A DNA stretch of 64,000 bases from Candidatus Omnitrophota bacterium (GCA_022710715.1 JAKLGJ010000004.1:192166-256165); one strand, 5' to 3'. Numbered from the stretch's first letter, positions 8,267 through 61,705 are shown. Program-made: numbers and translations. Notes: generated from the letters alone by a model not told the origin.

Positions 8267-8324
8267 GTACCCCTTGCGCAGATCGGAATTGCGCAAGGGT
8301 TGTCCCCGTGGACAAGGAGGCCCG

Positions 8325-8882: not shown

Positions 8883-10841
8883 ATGCGCGCAAGGAACAGT
8901 ATTCGGATCCTGATGCTGGGGATGGTTGCTTTTTTCGCGGGCGCGCTTACGCTGTGCGCCCAGAACACCGCGGAGCGGATCACGTCTTTTTCCAGCTCTA
9001 TCCGCGTTCACGAGGACAGCACCATGACGGTCACCGAGACCATTACCGTGCAGGCTGCCGGAGAGAACATCCGTCACGGCATCTACCGGGATTTTCCCAC
9101 CCGCTATAAGGATTATCTGGGCAATACCTATGTGGTCGATTTCCAGGTCCGGCGGGTCTTCCGCGACGGACTTTCCGAGAACTTCTGGGTGGAGCCGCTT
9201 GCCAACGGGAAGCGCGTGTATATCGGCAGCAAGCATGCGGTTCTTTCGCCCGGCGAGTACACGTATATCCTGGAATATCAGACCAATCGTCAACTGGGTT
9301 TTTTCCGCGATCACGACGAACTCTACTGGAATGTGACCGGCAACGGCTGGGGGTTCGAGATCGAAAAAGCGCAGGCGGTGATCGAGCTGCCGGGCGGCGC
9401 CAGGCAGCAGGTCGGCGCGCTGGAAGCGTTCACCGGTCCGCAGGGGGCCCGGGGCAGGGACTATGTAACGGGCCGCGACGCAATGGATGCTGTTACTTTT
9501 TCGACCTCCCGTCCTTTGCAGCCGGGGGAAGGTCTCACCATCGTCGTAGCCTGGCCCAAAGGTTTTGTTCGCGAGCCGGACCTGCGGCAGAAAGCGGTCT
9601 ATTTCTTCAGGGATAATCTGGGCAGCCTGGTTGGTTTTATCGGTTTGCTGGCGGTGCTGGCCTATTATCTGATCGTCTGGGCCTGGGTCGGCAAGGATCC
9701 CGCCCGGGGGACGATCATTCCGTTGTATAATCCGCCCGCGCCGCTTGATCCGGCGGCAGTGCGTTATATCATGCGCATGGGGTTCGACCAGAAATCATTT
9801 GCCGCGGAGATCATTAATATCGCGGTCAAAGGTTACATTACCATTGATGAGGCGAACGGCGGCTATATGCTCAAGAAGACCGGCCGCGCCGCCGCAGAAC
9901 TGAATGCCGGAGAATCGTTATTGTGTACCACGCTGTTCGGTTCGCGCGCCACACTCATGATCGCGCAGGAAAATCATTCGGAGATCAGCCACGCCATTGC
10001 GCAGTTGAAACAGATACTCAAGAATAATTATGAGAAGTCCTATTTTTTGACCAATATCGGATATTTTGCCGCGGGCGCGGTCATTTCCGCGGTGGTGGTC
10101 GGGATTGCGGCGCTCCTGCAGGCCAGCGAGAAACTGCCCATCGCTCTTTTTATGAGCGTGTGGTTGACCGGCTGGTCGGTGGGCGTGACGGTATTGCTCT
10201 CCCAGGTGGTTACGCAATGGAAGATCGTGTTGCGCGGCGGGAGCGGCCGCTTAGCCGCAACAGGAGGAGCGATTTTTATGAGCCTGTTCGCGTTGCCGTT
10301 CCTGGCGGGAGAGATCTTCGGCCTGGCGACGCTGGTTTACGCTACGTCCGCCACCGTGGTCCTGATCCTTTTTCTGGCCATGGGTATTAATGCGCTTTTT
10401 TATCATCTGCTCAAATCTCCCACGCTGGCCGGCCGGAAAGTCATGGACAAGATCGAAGGTTTCAAAATGTTCCTGGAGGCGGCAGAAAAAGACCGTATGA
10501 AGATCCTGTATCAACCCACAAAAACGCCGGAACTGTTCGAAAAATATTTGCCGTACGCTCTGGCGCTGGATGTGGAACAGGCCTGGGCTGAACAGTTCGC
10601 CGGCGTGCTGGACAAGGCCGCTACCGCGGAAGGCAAACACTATTCGCCGGCCTGGTATGCCGGCGCGCACTGGTCGAATCTGGGCGCCGCAGCTTTTGTT
10701 TCCAGCCTGGGCAGTTCTTTCGCCGGCGCAATATCCGCCGCTTCGCACGCACCCGGGTCGAGCTCGGGTAGCAGCGGTGGAGGGGGTGGCGGCGGTTCTT
10801 CCGGCGGCGGCGGCGGTGGCGGCGGTGGCGGCGGCTGGTAA
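8883..10841 (+). CDS. DUF2207 domain membrane protein with C-terminal Gly/Ser-rich tail
   Basis: Signal peptide, DUF2207-like N-terminal domain, multiple TM helices and a terminal SSGSSGGGGGGGSSGGGGGGGGGGGW tail. Canonical partner of LemA. Confidence 0.75.
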   Translation: MRARNSIRILMLGMVAFFAGALTLCAQNTAERITSFSSSIRVHEDSTMTVTETITVQAAGENIRHGIYRDFPTRYKDYLGNTYVVDFQVRRVFRDGLSENFWVEPLANGKRVYIGSKHAVLSPGEYTYILEYQTNRQLGFFRDHDELYWNVTGNGWGFEIEKAQAVIELPGGARQQVGALEAFTGPQGARGRDYVTGRDAMDAVTFSTSRPLQPGEGLTIVVAWPKGFVREPDLRQKAVYFFRDNLGSLVGFIGLLAVLAYYLIVWAWVGKDPARGTIIPLYNPPAPLDPAAVRYIMRMGFDQKSFAAEIINIAVKGYITIDEANGGYMLKKTGRAAAELNAGESLLCTTLFGSRATLMIAQENHSEISHAIAQLKQILKNNYEKSYFLTNIGYFAAGAVISAVVVGIAALLQASEKLPIALFMSVWLTGWSVGVTVLLSQVVTQWKIVLRGGSGRLAATGGAIFMSLFALPFLAGEIFGLATLVYATSATVVLILFLAMGINALFYHLLKSPTLAGRKVMDKIEGFKMFLEAAEKDRMKILYQPTKTPELFEKYLPYALALDVEQAWAEQFAGVLDKAATAEGKHYSPAWYAGAHWSNLGAAAFVSSLGSSFAGAISAASHAPGSSSGSSGGGGGGGSSGGGGGGGGGGGW

Positions 10842-48941: not shown

Positions 48942-49661
48942 ATGAAAAGCATTTATGGTCCGGTGCAGTCAAGACGGTTAGGTTTCTCGCTGGGCATTTC
49001 GCTGACGCCGCATAAGACCTGCAGTTTTGACTGTGTTTATTGCCAGCTGGGGGCTTCTGCCCGCAGGACCCGGGAACGCAAACCCTACGTTCCCGTTGAA
49101 GATGTTCTGGCAGAATTGCGGGCGTGGCTGGCGGATAACGCGGCTCTGGCCGGAAAGCTCGATTATGTGACTCTTTCGGGTTCCGGCGAGCCGGTATTGC
49201 ACAGCGGTATCGGGCAGATCATTGCCGGGATCAAAGCATTGACGGCGATCCCGGTTTGTTTGATCACCAATTCTTCATTGCTGGTCGATGCTGCGGTAAG
49301 AAAATCGATCCTGGGCGCGGATGTGATCATTCCTTCTCTGGATGCGGCTACGCAGGATATTTTTGAGCGGATAGACCGGCCGATGCCCGGTATCCAGGTG
49401 GAAGATATTATCGCTGCGCTGGTCGCTCTACGCAAAGAATACGCCGGCAGGATCTGGCTGGAAGTGATGCTGGTTAAAGGTATCAATGATAGCCGCGAGC
49501 ATATCAAATTGCTGGCGCAGACGGTGAAACGCATCGGCCCGGATAAATGCCAGCTTACTTCGCCGGTGCGCTGCACCGCGGAAAAGGATATCTTTCCGGT
49601 GGAACGCGGCGCGATGGAATCGTTCTGCGCGCTTATCGGCGGCGTCTGCGAAGTATATTGA
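48942..49661 (+). CDS. Radical SAM protein (small, no SPASM domain; family unassigned)
   Basis: CSFDCVYC CxxxCxxC cluster motif near the N-terminus. ATG at 48942; the ORF-track start at 48915 is TTG, inside the terminator hairpin. Confidence 0.7.
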   Translation: MKSIYGPVQSRRLGFSLGISLTPHKTCSFDCVYCQLGASARRTRERKPYVPVEDVLAELRAWLADNAALAGKLDYVTLSGSGEPVLHSGIGQIIAGIKALTAIPVCLITNSSLLVDAAVRKSILGADVIIPSLDAATQDIFERIDRPMPGIQVEDIIAALVALRKEYAGRIWLEVMLVKGINDSREHIKLLAQTVKRIGPDKCQLTSPVRCTAEKDIFPVERGAMESFCALIGGVCEVY

Positions 49662-49684
49662 CCGGGGAACGTCCCCATAGAAGC

Positions 49685-49838
49685 GGATGATAGCTGCGCC
49701 TGTCCCTGCAGATGTGCTGCGCACATCTATGCGCAGGGACACGGCGCGAAACGGATCATAGCTGCGCCTGCCCCTGCAGATGTGCTGCGCACATCTATGC
49801 GCAGGGACACGGCGCGAAACGGATCATAGCTGCGCCTG
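49685..49838 (+). repeat. Tandem 68 bp direct repeat (2.26 copies) ending in the tRNA-Arg 5' end
   Basis: Units begin at 49685, 49753 and 49821 (period 68). Each carries GGAT(G/C)ATAGCTGCGCCTG, identical to the tRNA-Arg leader plus first 7 nt, then a 39 nt hairpin GTCCCTGCAGATGTGC-TGC-GCACATCT-ATGC-GCAGGGAC (49702-49740 and 49770-49808). The third unit continues into the real tRNA. Confidence 0.8.
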
Positions 49839-49905
49839 TAGCTCAATTGGATAGAGCGCCAGCCTTCGGAGCTGGGCGTTGCAGGTTCAAGTCCTGCCAG
49901 GCGCA
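49832..49905 (+). tRNA. tRNA-Arg (anticodon UCG)
   Basis: Cloverleaf: acceptor GCGCCTG/CAGGCGC, D stem GCTC/GAGC, anticodon stem CCAGC/GCTGG with loop CTTCGGA, T arm GCAGG-TTCAAGT-CCTGC. Confidence 0.8.
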
Positions 49906-49951
49906 TTGAGTTTGAGGAAGCCGGGAGCAGGGAAATTTTGTTGATTTGCTG

Positions 49952-49980
49952 TTGCAAATCCCGCCATTTTACGCTAAAAT
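49952..49980 (+). promoter_or_regulatory. Sigma70-like promoter for tRNA-Lys
   Basis: TTGCAA at 49952-49957 (part of a GATTTGC/GCAAATC hairpin), a 17 nt spacer and TAAAAT at 49975-49980. Confidence 0.4.
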
Positions 49981-49995
49981 AATTAAACTGATTTC

Positions 49996-50068
49996 GGGCC
50001 GCTAGCTCAATTGGTAGAGCAGGACCCTCTTAAGGTCAAGGTTCGTGGTTCGATTCCACGGCGGCTCA
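49996..50068 (+). tRNA. tRNA-Lys (anticodon CUU)
   Basis: Cloverleaf: acceptor GGGCCGC/GCGGCTC (one G-U pair), D stem GCTC/GAGC, anticodon loop CTCTTAA, T arm CGTGG-TTCGATT-CCACG. There is a 27:43 G-A mismatch. Confidence 0.65.
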
Positions 50069-50084
50069 TTTATATTCTTTCCAG

Positions 50085-50513
50085 GTGGATCAGAGCACGT
50101 TCAAGATTATCGAGCATACCGCTGATATCGGTATCGAGGTCATCGGCGCACGCCTGGCGGATCTGTTTATCCATGCGGCTGAAGCGATGTTCTCGCTTAT
50201 CGCATCGCGTAAGACAGGCGTTTCTACGCGACGGACTGCGCGCACAATTCCCATCCACCTGGAGGCGGCAGACAGCGAAGAATTATTCATCGCATGGTTG
50301 AATGAACTCCTGTCTCTATCTGCCGTTAAAAACGTCATATTCTCTGATTTTCGTATAGACACAATCGACGATACTCATCTTAAAGGATCTGTCCGGGGAG
50401 AACCTGTCGCCCGGTATCGGATCACTACCGAGATCAAAGCGGCTACATTTCATGAACTGGCTCTGGAACATAGAGGTTCTTCCTGGAAAGCCAAGGTGAT
50501 TTTTGATGTCTGA
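50085..50513 (+). CDS. Archease (RtcB activator)
   Basis: EHTADIG motif near the N-terminus; about 140 aa. GTG start. Confidence 0.8.
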   Translation: MDQSTFKIIEHTADIGIEVIGARLADLFIHAAEAMFSLIASRKTGVSTRRTARTIPIHLEAADSEELFIAWLNELLSLSAVKNVIFSDFRIDTIDDTHLKGSVRGEPVARYRITTEIKAATFHELALEHRGSSWKAKVIFDV

Positions 50514-50805
50514 AGAGAGTTCCGGCGGCGGGATGGAAAAAAGGCAATTCCCCAGGGTGGAGGTCAACACCGCGGTCAAGTTCTCTGTAGTCATGCCGGC
50601 AGTAGAAGAAGGCATTTCCAAGGACATCAGTCAGGGAGGTTTGTGCCTTCACACCAAAAGAGCCCTGGTGCAAGGAACCATCCTGCATGTGGATTTCGAC
50701 CTGCCGGGAGACCCGCCGGTGCATGTTGAAGCGCTGGGAAAAGTCGTCTGGCAGCGCACCGATCCCGACGGCAGCTTCGCTACCGGGATAAAATTTATCA
50801 GTTAA
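50506..50805 (+). CDS. PilZ domain (c-di-GMP-binding) protein
   Basis: QFPRVEV (RxxxR-like) and DISQGG (DxSxxG) PilZ motifs. The ATG at 50506 overlaps the archease stop; an alternative start is at 50533. Confidence 0.65.
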   Translation: MSEESSGGGMEKRQFPRVEVNTAVKFSVVMPAVEEGISKDISQGGLCLHTKRALVQGTILHVDFDLPGDPPVHVEALGKVVWQRTDPDGSFATGIKFIS

Positions 50806-50816
50806 ATCAGATACAG

Positions 50817-53807
50817 ATGAGCGATCTTTGGCAGGGAACGTTGGAGAAAGTCGACGATTTTCGCTGGCGCATCCCGCCTTCCTATAAGCCCGGCATGCGC
50901 GTGCCGGGCCTTATTTATGCCGACGAGAAGCTCTTAAAAGACATTCTCCGCGACAAAGCCGCGGAGCAGGTCGCCAATGTGGCGTTCCTGCCGGGGATCA
51001 TCAACGCTTCTCTGGCCATGCCGGATATTCACTGGGGCTATGGTTTCCCCATCGGCGGCGTCGCAGCGACGGATATCGAGGCCGGAGGAGTGATCTCGCC
51101 CGGCGGCGTTGGGTTCGATATCAACTGCCTTACCGCTGAATCGCGCGTCTTGCATGCTTTCGGCTATTCTCTGCGTATTGCCGATCTTGAACAGACCTGG
51201 CGGACGAATCGGTTAGCGGTCATGGATTTCCGCCGGGGCAGAAAAGAGGATGCGGCGATCTGCGCGTATATCAAGATGGCGCCGCGAGAAAAGCTCTTTG
51301 AGATAACTACGGTAACGGGGAGGAAAATAAAAGCCACGGCAGATCATCCTTTCTGGACGCAGGACGGCATGGTGCCTCTGAAACGGCTTGCGGCAGGCAA
51401 TCGTGTAGCCCTGTACCCTTTTGAAGGTGTGCCTTTCGAGAAACCGGGCGGGGAGATCATTGTCGACGAAGAAGACGTAGTGCGGTTGCTTGCAGCGCTT
51501 AAAAAGGACTCGGGCGGCAATGCCGGTATCCAGGTTTTGAATCATCTGAAAAAAAGAGGCCTTTTACCGTTGCGCTACGATTCGCCGGCGTTGCCTTATT
51601 TGATCAAGATAGCGGGGTATTGTATCGGCGACGGTAATATCCATTTTGCTAAAAGCCGCGGCAAAGGAGTGACCGGATTCTGGGGGAAGAAAGAAGACCT
51701 GGAGCTCATTCGTAAAGATGTCGCGAAAACCGGGTTCACTTGCTCGCGGGTGTACCGGCGCAACCGCCGGCATGCAATCAACACCCCCTATGATTTGGTT
51801 CAATTCGAGCATCTGGAAGAGTCCTGCAAGGTCGTTTCCAGTTCTTTTTCCGTATTATTGATCTTATTGGGCTGTCCATATGGCAATAAGGCGGAGAAGC
51901 CGTTTTCTGTTCCGCGATGGCTATTCAAAGCTCCGCTTTGGCAGAAGAGATTGTTCCTGGCAGCTTACTTCGGGGCGGAAATGTCATCGCCGAAATCTTT
52001 TCGCGAGCAGGGATATAATCTCTATTGTCCCGTAGTTTCAATGAACAAGAACGGGCTTCTAGCCGACGATGCTATCGCGTTTTTCAAAGATATTTCCACC
52101 CTGTTGACCGAGTTCGGGGTCAGGACGGTCGCGATCAGCGAAAGTCACTCCGGATTTACCAGGAAAGGGACTTTCAACTATCGTATACGGTTGATCCTGG
52201 CCAGCAAAACCGAAGATCTGATAACACTGTACAGCAGGGTAGGATTTGAGTATAATCTTCACCGCAGTTTCCTGGCTAATGCCGCTATTCAGTTCTTGAA
52301 ATACAAACAGCGGATACTCCGGGAACGCGAGGAGAAAAGCGTTCAGGCACAGCGTTTGCATGCCCGGGGCTTCAGTCCCGCCCAGATTACCGAGAGTATC
52401 GGCTCGGAATTCGTGAATCGCCGGTTCATTGAAAGATCTGTTTATGAAGGCAGGAAAACGGGCCCACGCATAAGTTCCGCGGCGTTGAATTTCGTCAGCT
52501 TTATGGATGAGAATACCGCGGGATTAGAGATGTCCGGCATGCTCTGGGACGCGATCGAGACGATCGAAGAATCGGCGTCTCCGGAGTATGTATACGATTT
52601 TACTGTAGGGCATCGGGATCATAATTTTGTTGCCGACACTTTCGTGGTTTCTAACTGCGGGGTCAGGTTGTTGACCACCAACCTGCGCTACGATGACGTC
52701 AAAGACAGGATCAAAGATTTAACCTGCCGGCTCTTTAACGCTATTCCCACCGGCGTCGGATCGAAAGGCGATATCCGGATCAGCGAGAAGGAAGAGCGCA
52801 AGCTCCTGGTCGAAGGAGCGGGTTGGGCGGTCAAACAGGGTTTCGGGGTCCAGGAAGATCTGGAGTGCACTGAAGAATCCGGCGCGATCCAGGGCGCGGA
52901 TCCCGCGGCAGTTTCCGAACGCGCCTATGAGCGCGGCAAGGCCCAATCGGGCACGCTGGGTTCAGGCAACCATTTCCTGGAAGTGCAGGTGATCGACCAG
53001 TTGTATAACCGCGACGCCTGCGATGCCCTTAATCTTGACCAGGGACAGATCACCCTCATGATCCATTCCGGCTCGCGCGGTCTGGGGTATCAGATCTGCG
53101 ACGATTACGTCCGGTCGATGGTGCGTTGTCTGGACAAGTATAAGATCGAAGTGCCGGACCGCCAGCTGGCCTGCGCGCCGGTAACCTCGCCGGAAGGGAA
53201 AGCTTATCTGGCCGCGATGCGCTGCGCGGCCAACTATGCCTGGGCCAACCGGCAATGCCTGATGCATCTGGCGCGGTTGACGTTCCAGGAGTTCTTCGGG
53301 ACTCCCTGGCAGAAGATGCAGATGCGCCTGGTGTATGATGTGGCGCATAACATCGCCAAGATCGAAAAACACACGGTGAACGGGCAGCTCAAGAATGTCT
53401 GCGTGCATCGCAAAGGGGCGACCCGCGCGTTCGGCCCCGGGCATCCGGAACTGCCGCAGCGGTATCGTCAGATGGGCCAGCCGGTGATCATCCCCGGCGA
53501 TATGGGGCGCAATTCTTACTTATTGGTCGGCACGCAGCAAGCGATGGAAGAAACATTCGGCAGCACCTGCCACGGCGCGGGCCGGGTGATGTCGCGCAGC
53601 GCCGCGACCCGGTCCATCGACAGCCGGCAGTTGCTTAAAGATCTGGAATCGAAAGGTATTACGGTGATGGCTGCCGGCAGAGGCACGCTGGTGGAAGAGG
53701 CGCCGGAAGTTTACAAGAACGTCAATGACGTGGTTGATGTAGTGCACAAGGCCGGGCTGTCCACCCGGGTGTGCAGGATGAGACCCCTGGGAGTGATTAA
53801 AGGATAA
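50817..53807 (+). CDS. rtcB: RNA-splicing ligase RtcB interrupted by a large intein
   Basis: Exteins carry GFDIN|[14 protein letters not shown] and GSTCHGAGR RtcB motifs. 996 aa versus about 480 for canonical RtcB. Confidence 0.9.
51126..52655 (+). mobile_element. RtcB intein (510 aa) with LAGLIDADG homing-endonuclease domain
   Basis: Starts with Cys (CLTAESRVL) and block B TADHPF. LAGLIDADG-like [14 protein letters not shown] and [10 protein letters not shown]. Block [16 protein letters not shown] and block G TFVVSN followed by +1 Cys. The penultimate residue is Ser rather than His. Confidence 0.85.
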
Positions 53808-55811: not shown

Positions 55812-55932
55812 GTCTTGTATCCCGGCTCAAGGGTGCGGTTAATCTGTCCAGCTCGTAAACGCTCAGAATTTCCTTCGGAAATTCCATCGCACTCGCTGGA
55901 CGTCACATCTGAATAAAACCTTAAGGAGTTCC

Positions 55933-55953
55933 GGTGGGGTGGCAGAGCGGTTG
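55933..55953 (+). repeat. Orphan copy of the first 21 nt of tRNA-Ser
   Basis: GGTGGGGTGGCAGAGCGGTTG is identical to 56044-56064. No anticodon or T arm follows, so this is not a tRNA. Confidence 0.8.
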
Positions 55954-56043
55954 CGACTGAGCGAAGCGCAGGAGTCCCGTGAACGCAGTGAACGGGAAAT
56001 GCGCTTGCGCATCGTCAGGCGATGCCAATGGCGGAATCTTTCT

Positions 56044-56130
56044 GGTGGGGTGGCAGAGCGGTTGAATGCGGCAGTCTTGAAAACTGTTAAGGGCGCAAGT
56101 CCTTCGAGAGTTCGAATCTCTCCCCCACCG
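56044..56130 (+). tRNA. tRNA-Ser (anticodon UGA)
   Basis: Class II tRNA: acceptor GGTGGGG/CCCCACC, 3 bp D stem with an 11 nt loop, anticodon loop CTTGAAA, 18 nt variable arm, T arm GAGAG-TTCGAAT-CTCTC. Confidence 0.8.
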
Positions 56131-59899: not shown

Positions 59900-61705
59900 A
59901 TGCGTGTTTTGATAAGGAGCAGAGAACCGGTGTCGCAAACACAACTTGACGTCAAATTGCTGGAAGTCACCGATAACGCCCTGGCGATCATTTACGCCGC
60001 CTGCCGGCAGTGCTATTCCGATAAATTTGCCGGCGATATCTTTGACGACGGCAGCGCCGATCCCGGCAAAGCCGGGGAGTTCATCCGTAAAGTGGTCGCT
60101 TCCGGCCATGAAAGCCCGCTCGAGCATGCTAAATTCACCTTTGCTATCCAGGGCGTGTCGCGGGCGCTGACCCATCAGCTGGTGCGTCACCGGATCGCTT
60201 CTTTCTGTTTAACGGGAGATACGATAATCAAGGGAGCACGGAATGACAGTGCTCGGTCGTATAAAAAGTATACCTTGAAATCGTTGTATGAGAGAATGCT
60301 GACCCCGCACGGCAGGTCTCGTTTAAAACTGATCAGGTTGAATGCTTACGATGAGCAGGGGAAGGTATTTGATCGGGGGAAGATCAAAACAATTCTGTAC
60401 ACCGGCAGGCAAATGGTATGGCGGGTGAAGTTGACTAACGGCCAGAGCATAAAAGCCACGATTAATCATCGGTTTTTAACGCGAGATGGCTGGTTGCCTT
60501 TGGAAGATATTATACGCGTCAGACCTCAACTGGGCGTTAACGGTATTGCTTGCCGGCATCCGAGTTTTGCTGTGCTTAGAAACAGGCAATGGCTGGAGGA
60601 GCAATATAGTCTCAAGAATCTGAAGCAAGAAACTATTGCGAAGCTGATTGGATGCTCCGGTCATACGGTGAGAAGCTGGGTATTCAAGCATGGTTTACAG
60701 AAAGAAATCGGCGGTTTGCATGGGCATCCTCCCAATCGTGGATATCATTGGAAGCTTAATCGCAATCGCACCCTTGAGGAGAAAAAGGCGATTTCCGAGA
60801 GGATGAAAGGCCCGCGCAATCCTATGTGGAAGGGGGGAGTTACGCGGTTGGACGTTACCTTGCGCAAAATGGTATCTCCCGAAGTCCGTAAGGACATTTA
60901 TAGGCGAGATGGTTTTCAATGTCGCCTGTGCAAGCAGGTTGGAGGCCGTTTGACGCTGCATCATCGGGTGCCGCTCTATGTCAATCCGGTCGACCCGGCG
61001 GATACAGATAATTTAGTGACTCTTTGCAGGAAATGCCATTTTAAAGTGAACAATCATGAAATGGAATATATGAATATTTTCGGAATTGACCCTATACCCT
61101 ATCATGCCAGGTCAAGCGGTTGTTTTCGAGTCATAAAATGGGTAGAGATAGCCAGTATTGAGTGTGCAGGGATCGAAGACACGTACGATATAGAGATGCA
61201 GGCTCCGCACCATAATTTTGTAGCCAACGGTTTTGTCGTTCATAATTCACAGCAGTCGCAACGCTATGTCAAGGAGTCCCAGTTCGATTACATCATCCCG
61301 CCTTCCATCGAGAAGGATCCGCGCAAGAAAGAGGTTTTTCTCCAGACCATGAAGGAGATACAGGAACAGTACAATAAACTGCTCGCGTTGTACAAAGAAG
61401 GCGGACAGCAGGGGGAAGTCGCCAACCAGGACGCGCGTTTTGTCCTGCCGCAGGCCGCCGAGACCAAAATCGTGGTAAGCATGAACTGCCGGGAATTGCT
61501 GCATTTTTTCAAGCACCGCTGCTGCGTGCGGGCCCAGTGGGAGATCCGGGCTTTAGCCGGCCGCATGCTGGCCATGGCCAGGGAGAAACTGCCCGAAATC
61601 TTCGGCGCCGCCGGCGCGAAGTGCGAATCGCTTGGGTATTGTCCGGAAGGGGAGAAATTCAGCTGCGGTAAATATCCCTCCAAAGATAAAGTCCTGAAAG
61701 TGTAA
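59900..61705 (+). CDS. thyX: Flavin-dependent thymidylate synthase ThyX interrupted by an intein
   Basis: The ThyX signature RHRIASF|SQQSQRY is split by the insert. Remaining exteins total about 254 aa. Confidence 0.88.
   Translation: MRVLIRSREPVSQTQLDVKLLEVTDNALAIIYAACRQCYSDKFAGDIFDDGSADPGKAGEFIRKVVASGHESPLEHAKFTFAIQGVSRALTHQLVRHRIASFCLTGDTIIKGARNDSARSYKKYTLKSLYERMLTPHGRSRLKLIRLNAYDEQGKVFDRGKIKTILYTGRQMVWRVKLTNGQSIKATINHRFLTRDGWLPLEDIIRVRPQLGVNGIACRHPSFAVLRNRQWLEEQYSLKNLKQETIAKLIGCSGHTVRSWVFKHGLQKEIGGLHGHPPNRGYHWKLNRNRTLEEKKAISERMKGPRNPMWKGGVTRLDVTLRKMVSPEVRKDIYRRDGFQCRLCKQVGGRLTLHHRVPLYVNPVDPADTDNLVTLCRKCHFKVNNHEMEYMNIFGIDPIPYHARSSGCFRVIKWVEIASIECAGIEDTYDIEMQAPHHNFVANGFVVHNSQQSQRYVKESQFDYIIPPSIEKDPRKKEVFLQTMKEIQEQYNKLLALYKEGGQQGEVANQDARFVLPQAAETKIVVSMNCRELLHFFKHRCCVRAQWEIRALAGRMLAMAREKLPEIFGAAGAKCESLGYCPEGEKFSCGKYPSKDKVLKV
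60206..61246 (+). mobile_element. ThyX intein (347 aa) with HNH homing-endonuclease domain
   Basis: Starts with Cys (CLTGDTII), block B-like KATINHRF, an HNH module (CRLC...HHRVP...N...CRKCH), block F YDIEMQAPHHNFVA and block G GFVVHN followed by +1 Ser. Confidence 0.85.

Follow-up and report, generated by a model that had tools for sequence, protein, structure and literature searches.

The tRNA-Arg(UCG) gene of this metagenome-assembled Candidatus Omnitrophota genome is preceded by a real array of two tandem 68-nt units, each of which joins a copy of the tRNA leader and of the first seven nucleotides of the tRNA to a very stable hairpin. Assemblies of the same organism differ in the number of units, the core of the hairpin resembles a palindrome that is dispersed in the genome, and modules made of a tRNA 5' fragment plus a hairpin recur upstream of tRNA genes across the phylum. 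The array is akin both to REP-like repeats and to tRNA-operon repeats with a tRNA end fragment, and what is unusual about it is its 5' polarity and its recurrence across the Omnitrophota loci sampled. By a slight balance of probability, we favour a reading in which a REP-like palindrome in the tRNA-Arg leader, together with direct repeats of ~23 nt, makes up the 68-nt unit, which is multiplied or removed by slippage or unequal crossing-over. Positions given without a locus handle are those of the window, i.e. the whole stretch of 64,000 nt that was analysed.

Anatomy, context and number of the tandem units

As the sequence-only reading had claimed, units of 68 bp lie in tandem directly upstream of tRNA-Arg (Table 1). 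Tandem Repeats Finder reports a period of 68 over 49680-49839 (2.4 copies, 95% matches, score 299), the third and incomplete copy passing into tRNA-Arg itself, and a repeat search of the window returned two 68-nt copies of 96% identity, as well as three copies, spaced by 68, of a 24-nt leader plus GCGCCTG. The 64 kb window has exactly two copies of the 39-nt hairpin, where 0 would be expected. Each unit consists of a 16-nt leader, GAA(G/A)CGGAT(G/C)ATAGCT, of GCGCCTG (tRNA positions 1-7) followed by T or C, of a nested palindrome and of a 3'-terminal CACGGCGC. The likeness to the leader, noticed before, is present but spans 16 nt and not 11-12 nt; copy 1 of the leader reads GAAGCGGATGATAGCT, the other two GAAACGGATCATAGCT. 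The stems named in the earlier reading are correct, and so is the hairpin into which the unit was said to diverge; what had been missed is that CACGGCGC pairs back on GCGCCTG in the fold (closing pair GCGCC/GGCGC), and therefore each unit, from -1/+1 onwards, is one hairpin of ~53 nt. Folding of the units, which had been proposed as a check, yielded very stable hairpins of -39.3 kcal/mol for unit 1 (z -7.5) and -34.2 kcal/mol for unit 2 (z -6.0), the latter being weaker because the C at position 8 makes a stem mismatch. With these values the units are imperfect palindromes forming stable hairpins, as REP and BIME elements are. The inner stem AGATGTGC/GCACATCT has the look of a loop turned palindromic. 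A CRISPR array was considered and rejected, since the repetition extends over all 68 nt of the unit and leaves no room for unique spacers. We saw no evidence that the units are independent genes, and searching Rfam with window regions and with nine loci (threshold E<=10 or gathering) returned tRNAs only.

Table 1. Features of the window and inserts or fragments at other Omnitrophota tRNA loci
Feature	Position	Strand	Basis and remarks
Canonical palindrome, CCCTTGCGC AGATCGGAATT GCGCAAGGG	8271..8299	+	covariance-model match, regex census, fold z -2.8; intergenic, shikimate dehydrogenase/LemA (names from L046 annotation)
Radical SAM gene	48942..49661	+	ORF list, Pfam Radical_SAM; stop codon 49659-49661; directly upstream of array
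Small hairpin GGGGAACGTCCCC	49664..49676	+	just after radical SAM stop; paired in fold of 49660-49915
Leader copy 1, GAAGCGGATGATAGCT	49680..49695	+	14/16 positions identical to genuine leader
Palindrome 1	49696..49747	+	GCGCCTG, T, CCCTGC AGATGTGC TGC GCACATCT ATGC GCAGGG A, CACGGCGC; single long hairpin; core aligns to dispersed palindrome family
Leader copy 2, GAAACGGATCATAGCT	49748..49763	+	identical to genuine leader
Palindrome 2	49764..49815	+	differs from palindrome 1 by C for T at tRNA-like position 8, one mismatch
Genuine 5' leader of tRNA-Arg (leader copy 3)	49816..49831	+	sequence
tRNA-Arg(UCG)	49832..49905	+	Rfam tRNA 70.1 bits; ARAGORN; CCA not encoded
tRNA-Lys(CUU)	49996..50068	+	own promoter-like site TTGCAA-17-TAAAAT at 49952-49980; no 5' fragment upstream
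tRNA-Ser(UGA) upstream copy	55929..56039	+	25 nt at 55929-55953 (leader + first 21 nt of tRNA), then 86-nt structured insert
tRNA-Ser(UGA)	56044..56130	+	Rfam 58.3 bits
L003 tRNA-Arg insert			4.2 tandem 46-nt units
L005 tRNA-Arg insert			2.4 tandem 163-nt units
L020 tRNA-Arg insert			two 46-nt units, 17-nt tRNA fragment, ~100-nt module
L018 and L009 tRNA-Arg inserts			12-nt fragment + 80 nt (L018), 170 nt (L009)
L006 tRNA-Arg insert			36-nt fragment; acceptor strand unlike functional tRNA
L012 tRNA-Arg insert			three ~48-nt units
L017 tRNA-Arg insert			one 46-nt-type unit
Upstream tRNA-Lys fragments			two in L017; one, diverged, in L014; three in L024

The array stands in the gene order lpxD, lpxC-fabZ, lpxA, lpxI, CBM48, radical SAM, array, tRNA-Arg, tRNA-Lys, archease, PilZ, RtcB with intein, serS, membrane protein, tRNA-Ser. 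A scan of 49660-49830 returned neither promoter nor terminator consensus. A promoter inside the units was rejected for want of a consensus match, with no convincing site found by eye at the other loci; an intrinsic terminator was likewise rejected, the hairpins being followed by GAAAC and not by a T run. The stretch from the radical SAM stop to the tRNA has no promoter- or terminator-like site, so that the array is probably transcribed with the radical SAM gene.

Two units without any N are present in the 1.62-Mb JGI contig Ga0116241_10000002, which is identical to the window, and the NCBI scaffold DAOOTZ010000001.1 carries the same two units with 100 N inserted between window positions 49826 and 49827. 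A single unit, palindrome 2 being absent, is found in ERZ795054/GCA_035453765.1, JGI 3300009776, JGI 3300025715 and SRR5007146, all from the same organism and at least 99.8% identical. The unit number is either polymorphic or collapsed in short-read assemblies. In the junction of unit 2, leader type 2 is followed by the C variant. No genome with a single unit could provide this junction, and at least one population must therefore have two units. The insertion site was compared among same-species assemblies, the closest relatives by radical SAM protein being only ~60% identical. Contig edges of four assemblies of this organism fall at ~49395-49410, within the radical SAM gene, some 290 nt before the array: two contigs end at 49398/49399 (L001, L002), while others start at 49395 (L032) and 49410 (L033).

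A dispersed palindrome and tRNA 5' copies in other Omnitrophota

The sequence-only reading had also called for a search for the hairpin elsewhere. No exact copies of the 39-nt hairpin or of its stems were found elsewhere in the window, in 20 loci or in the flanks, but a family of related palindromes was. The canonical form reads CCCTTGCGC-AGATCGGAATT-GCGCAAGGG, with fold z of -2.8 to -3.1 for canonical copies, and the family, with the tRNA-Arg units as probable members, occupies four intergenic loci in ~80 kb of this genome. Besides the copy at 8271 and the tRNA-Arg units, these are a tandem palindrome array between metK and ahcY (43 nt x 5.6 copies, L046 2646-2884, on the same contig ~4.5 kb before the window start) and a copy in the tRNA-Ser(CGA) leader, where a good promoter precedes it (L047 19544-19585, 7.3 kb past the window end). 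The metK-ahcY palindrome, ACACTTGCGCA-TATTCCGAT-TGCGCAAGGTGT, is oriented opposite to transcription, and in the last copy of that array (2872-2948) the loop contains two nested GC-rich hairpins. In further Omnitrophota the same palindrome precedes tRNA-Arg (L003, with 4.2 tandem copies, L005, L020 and L017) or tRNA-Lys (L024). The L024 copy follows a 6-nt tRNA-Lys fragment; its stem has changed in a compensatory way (GCCA/TGGC), and its loop, ATCGGA(A)T, is unchanged. The 46-nt hairpin that we call module A, ACC(C)TTGCGC - loop with (C)GGAAT - GCGCAAGGT, is therefore not specific to tRNA-Arg. In six genomes the canonical palindrome lies 9-16 nt upstream of a tRNA or tRNA-like start, always in the same orientation, and within the sequence available it is enriched beside tRNA 5' ends. 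Judged by its distribution, the palindrome behaves like a REP-type dispersed element conserved across genera.

The core of the window units aligns with this palindrome as TGCGCACATC----TATGCGCAGGG against TGCGCA-ATCGGAATATGCGCAAG. Written out, the unit core is TGCGCA-CATCTA-TGCGCAGGG, with CCCT.GC.AGAT before it, and it aligns with canonical TGCGCA-ATCGGAATA-TGCGCAAG and with CCCTTGCGCAGAT. The link of the units to the family rests on this local alignment of ~22 nt between GC-rich palindromes, which scores 20-23 (shuffle P 0.011 and <0.0005); for most unrelated inserts and for the E. coli spacer the score is 10-16, a few reach 18-20, and two other tRNA-leader inserts with REP-like arms score equally high. 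The covariance model of the canonical palindromes (R1) detects the canonical copies and gives neither of the window units a score at E<=10, for which reason we rate family membership as probable: the unit palindrome is probably a diverged member of a dispersed Omnitrophota repeat family that often sits at the 5' edge of tRNA genes. An earlier proposal had been a REP-like insertion that replaced tRNA bodies; its first part gains support from the alignment of the core, but nothing tRNA-like, the acceptor strands excepted, is left in the units to show a replacement.

Using a 38-nt tRNA stretch against genome and metagenome collections, plus protein look-ups, we collected ~15 distinct tRNA-Arg(TCG) loci, nearly all of them downstream of the same radical SAM gene; wherever the retrieved sequence reaches far enough upstream, this gene pair is conserved. 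Six loci (L004, L007, L008, the L010/L011 species, L014 and L024) have no insert, and their tRNA begins 2-20 nt after the radical SAM stop, a spacing consistent with co-transcription. The remaining loci carry inserts that are mostly non-homologous to one another, each preceded by a copy of the tRNA start (Table 1). Within the window, tRNA-Ser(UGA) has such a copy as well, 24/25 identical at a spacing of 111 and the same in four independent assemblies.

To assess polarity, we masked full-length tRNAs in 25 non-redundant Omnitrophota tRNA loci and ran a Smith-Waterman scan. An upstream copy of the tRNA 5' part is present at 11 loci (10 checked by eye, tRNA-Lys of L009 by scan alone) and a downstream copy at one (a scan call alone), while none of the 25 has a copy of the 3' part, be it upstream or downstream. 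In E. coli K-12, 0 of 20 tRNAs have their 5' part copied upstream, and the serV-argVYZQ spacers carry 19-nt 3' fragments. Most of the Omnitrophota inserts are far more structured than shuffles, with z between -2.2 and -7.5 in 8 of 11 units. That an insert always closes with the complement of the tRNA fragment was tried as a general rule and rejected. Closing-helix P values are 0.052 for the window units, 0.04 for module B, 0.012 for L024 fragment 2 and 0.024 for module A, where the fragment is a trivial 4 nt; the closing helix is absent in the remaining units, so there is no general rule.

The apical loop of the tRNA-Ser insert, GAACGCAGTGAAC (55981-55993), is also the loop of an L017 insert upstream of tRNA-Lys (296-308), the surrounding stems being unrelated and both fully paired. 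A hairpin base AATGAGG...CCGAATT (helix with tandem G-A pairs) carries wholly different, compensating upper stems in L017 (277-484, minus strand) and L024 (966-1018); two such hairpins lie upstream of tRNA-Lys in L017 and one in the bamA-skp spacer of L024, and the element is not in Rfam. A hammerhead ribozyme was rejected for the L017 AAUGAGG...CCGAAUU hairpins, G5 and C3 of the core being missing and Rfam giving no match. Further repeats lie just 3' of tRNA-Arg in L003, L004, L005, L020, L010/L011 and L009. Among them are a long inverted repeat in L003 and L020, GGGGACAC.ATACTTAATTAT...ATAATTAAGTATCG..TCCCC, a direct repeat of TACATTCCGGGATTGT in L010/L011, and 3.4 copies of CGGTGTA in L009.

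Origin and possible fate of the array

In the reading that we favour, the base state would be the arrangement seen in four assemblies, [16-nt leader + GCGCCTG(T)] - palindrome - [16-nt leader] - tRNA. With its palindrome flanked by two direct repeats of ~23 nt, this arrangement would be open to slipped-strand mispairing or unequal crossing-over, and whole 68-nt units would be gained or lost in this way, leaving one in some assemblies and two in others. Transcribed with the radical SAM gene, the array would form a long pre-tRNA leader from which RNase P would free the tRNA by cutting at 49831/49832. The look-alike sites 49695/49696 and 49763/49764, at which U occupies -1 and a helix starts from +1 with G paired to C, may be cut by RNase P as well. 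Co-transcription followed by removal through RNase P is probable, and the hairpin then left at the 3' end of the upstream RNA could block 3' exonucleases, as REP hairpins do in enterobacteria. The same anatomy (U at -1, G at +1, helix from +1) makes a decoy or processing-site array, another suggestion of the sequence-only reading, plausible. One locus runs against the favoured reading. In L006 (~1640-1775) the upstream fragment has GCGCTCG, and the functional tRNA 140 nt downstream has GCCCCTG/CAGGGGT; the fragment sits right after the radical SAM stop, which is the position of the gene in insert-free relatives. This suggests that a foreign or paralogous copy replaced the gene, rather than a local duplication, and the acceptor mismatch argues for recombination with foreign DNA, at least there.

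It is unlikely that the units are decayed tandem tRNA-Arg genes, a scenario in which gene and leader were duplicated two or three times, the acceptor strands were kept and the body collapsed to a hairpin. The unit does retain GCGCCTG, and CA(C)GGCGC equals the 3' acceptor strand with one inserted C; the second tRNA-Lys unit of L017 ends in GTTCTTCACGGCT, like its T-arm plus 3' acceptor, and partial tRNA copies do occur in the spacers of E. coli tRNA clusters. However, nothing tRNA-like lies between the acceptor strands of the unit, and neither Rfam tRNA (RF00005), even at E<=10, nor ARAGORN finds a tRNA in the units, only 49832-49905 scoring; the remnant of tandem tRNA gene copies envisaged earlier thus finds no support from either program. 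The 3' acceptor-like strand of the unit is indistinguishable from a plain complement of the 5' strand, and the closing strand of module B (L005, L020), TTGAGCTACAG, is complementary to tRNA positions 5-15 and does not correspond to a tRNA 3' end. The likeness to a palindrome that occurs away from tRNAs would also be left unexplained.

The units might instead be a selected pre-tRNA leader RNA, acting as an RNase P-released minihelix, as a brake on maturation or as a 3' guard for the radical SAM mRNA. This is compatible with the favoured reading and, as the main explanation, improbable. It would fit the very stable folds, the exact repetition of an RNase P-like context, the placement of the palindrome, in one orientation, shortly before tRNA or tRNA-like starts in six genomes, and the sense-strand G-U pairs in four cells of the module-A stem. 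On the other hand, covariation in the module-A stem, which we looked for, is no better than in shuffles, about half of the orthologous loci have no insert, the inserts are non-homologous between lineages, the metK-ahcY array faces against transcription, and unit 2 has a stem mismatch. A wider proposal, to which we give little weight at present, is that small palindromic elements of at least one family specifically colonise tRNA 5' edges in Omnitrophota, with the tRNA-Arg units as an active, copy-number-variable case. They would do so either through a 5'-polar, integrase-free entry that regenerates the gene, or as a selected, conserved pre-tRNA leader motif that controls RNase P processing or the fate of the upstream mRNA.

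Attachment scars, left by site-specific integration at the 5' part of the tRNA of an island since deleted or of a tiny cis-mobilisable element, are a very improbable origin. The direct repeats of leader and tRNA 5' end do bracket the insert as att sites would, the tDNA fragment has the same orientation as a regenerated gene and is on the correct side, as displaced tRNA fragments of islands are, and the L014 insert carries a promoter. Islands with a 5' fragment are also known, 159 of the 3919 in Islander, against 3760 with a 3' fragment (96% displace the 3' part; PMC4383910), which agrees with the earlier remark that integrative elements mostly duplicate 3' ends. Islander islands, however, measure at least 2 kb and carry an integrase (PMC4383910), unlike the Omnitrophota inserts of merely 45-190 nt (45 nt between the repeats at the window locus). 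We found no island or integrase between fragment and tRNA, at 0 of ~15 tRNA-Arg loci and 0 of 7 tRNA-Lys loci, and the neighbouring genes in the window are housekeeping genes. Identity between tandem copies, their inserts included, is 96-98% and speaks for local duplication. An exact scan of viral contigs found neither hairpin nor tRNA, and BLAST against phage and plasmid collections gave no match. The array is not the footprint of an integrative island.

We give almost no credence to a DNA operator, in which the perfect 8-3-8 inverted repeat AGATGTGC-TGC-GCACATCT, present twice at 68 bp, would be the site of a dimeric regulator of the tRNA operon: there is no predicted promoter nearby, the inner palindrome is not conserved at any other locus, and it forms part of a longer hairpin of the kind seen in repeat elements. 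An assembly artefact, with a second unit created from a single true one, is hardly credible despite the four one-unit assemblies and the 100-N gap in the array of one scaffold, as the junction of unit 2 (C at position 8 after leader type 2) is not derivable from one unit at k>=21 and is carried by the 1.62-Mb contig, which has no gap, as well as by the scaffold's left contig, and the phenomenon persists even with one unit.

Comparison with known systems and wider implications

REP and BIME elements of enterobacteria and pseudomonads are short imperfect palindromes, strictly intergenic, both dispersed and in tandem clusters, and conserved within lineages. In transcribed spacers a REP hairpin can protect the upstream mRNA, and REPs are known join-points of tandem duplications. 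The units resemble them as short intergenic palindromes with stable hairpins, and the family to which they probably belong has copies at several intergenic loci (four in ~80 kb, the units included) and in tandem clusters; unlike in BIMEs, where orientation alternates, the clustered copies are direct repeats, and they have no sequence likeness to known REPs. We know of no description of REPs associated with the 5' edge of tRNAs with a co-duplicated tRNA start.

E. coli has tRNA-operon repeats that carry a tRNA 3'-end fragment, such as the 178-bp repeats of tyrT with rtT RNA; no Rfam match to RtT RNA was obtained at E<=10 in 49000-50600. In E. coli K-12 (L030, 2817784-2818645), argV and argZ are each followed by a spacer that contains a 3' fragment of tRNA-Arg 19 nt long, AATCCTCCCGGATGCACCA. 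The fragment AAUCCUCCCGGAUGCACCA pairs with an upstream complement and encloses three small hairpins (z -6.8), and the spacer is not an Rfam family. Like these serV-argVYZQ spacers, the window array is a structured unit in a tRNA operon that bears the terminal fragment of the adjacent tRNA, and the architecture of the arg spacer is that of module B and of L024 fragment 2. The polarity is mirrored, with a 3' fragment downstream in E. coli and a 5' fragment upstream in Omnitrophota, and there is no relation in sequence or in Rfam. ARAGORN reports a spurious antisense tRNA in the serV-argVYZQ spacers.

RNase P also accepts hairpin substrates, among them the 4.5S RNA precursor and acceptor/T-stem minihelices. 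In their sequence context alone, the units are similar to these minihelix substrates, with a single-stranded leader that ends in U (-1), a helix whose first pair, at +1, is G-C, and a 3' tail left unpaired; they differ by having no CCA, which is likewise not encoded in the real tRNA-Arg. The plastid trnF pseudogene arrays of Brassicaceae and Solanaceae lie upstream of the functional trnF and have been attributed to slipped-strand mispairing or unequal recombination (PMC3786074). Here too, tandem partial tRNA copies precede a functional gene, in a number that is variable among close relatives. Recognisable tRNA domains are retained in the plastid units, whereas the Omnitrophota units have only 7-8 nt of tRNA plus a palindrome of a dispersed family.

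Partial tRNA copies in bacteria are usually read as island footprints and are nearly always 3' fragments; the sampled Omnitrophota present the opposite. Their inserts are tiny, structured and without integrase, and at least one insert type is a palindrome that is also found away from tRNAs. If confirmed genome-wide, this would amount to a new behaviour of REP-like repeats or to a new leader motif, and it would account for short-read assemblies that break or collapse at tRNA loci in these genomes. It would also caution annotators that such fragments are not att sites. Natural populations with one and with two units would offer a simple test system for the effect of leader hairpins on RNase P processing and on the stability of the upstream mRNA.

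Inteins interrupt RtcB (beside archease and a PilZ protein; 50817-53807) and ThyX (59900-61705; intein with an HNH domain), and the two share a 57-nt stretch of 70% identity (51327-51383 and 60449-60505). A LAGLIDADG ORF lies 8.9 kb past the window end (L047 20187-), and a run of 11 copies of the trinucleotide CGG is found in a coding region at 10802-10835.
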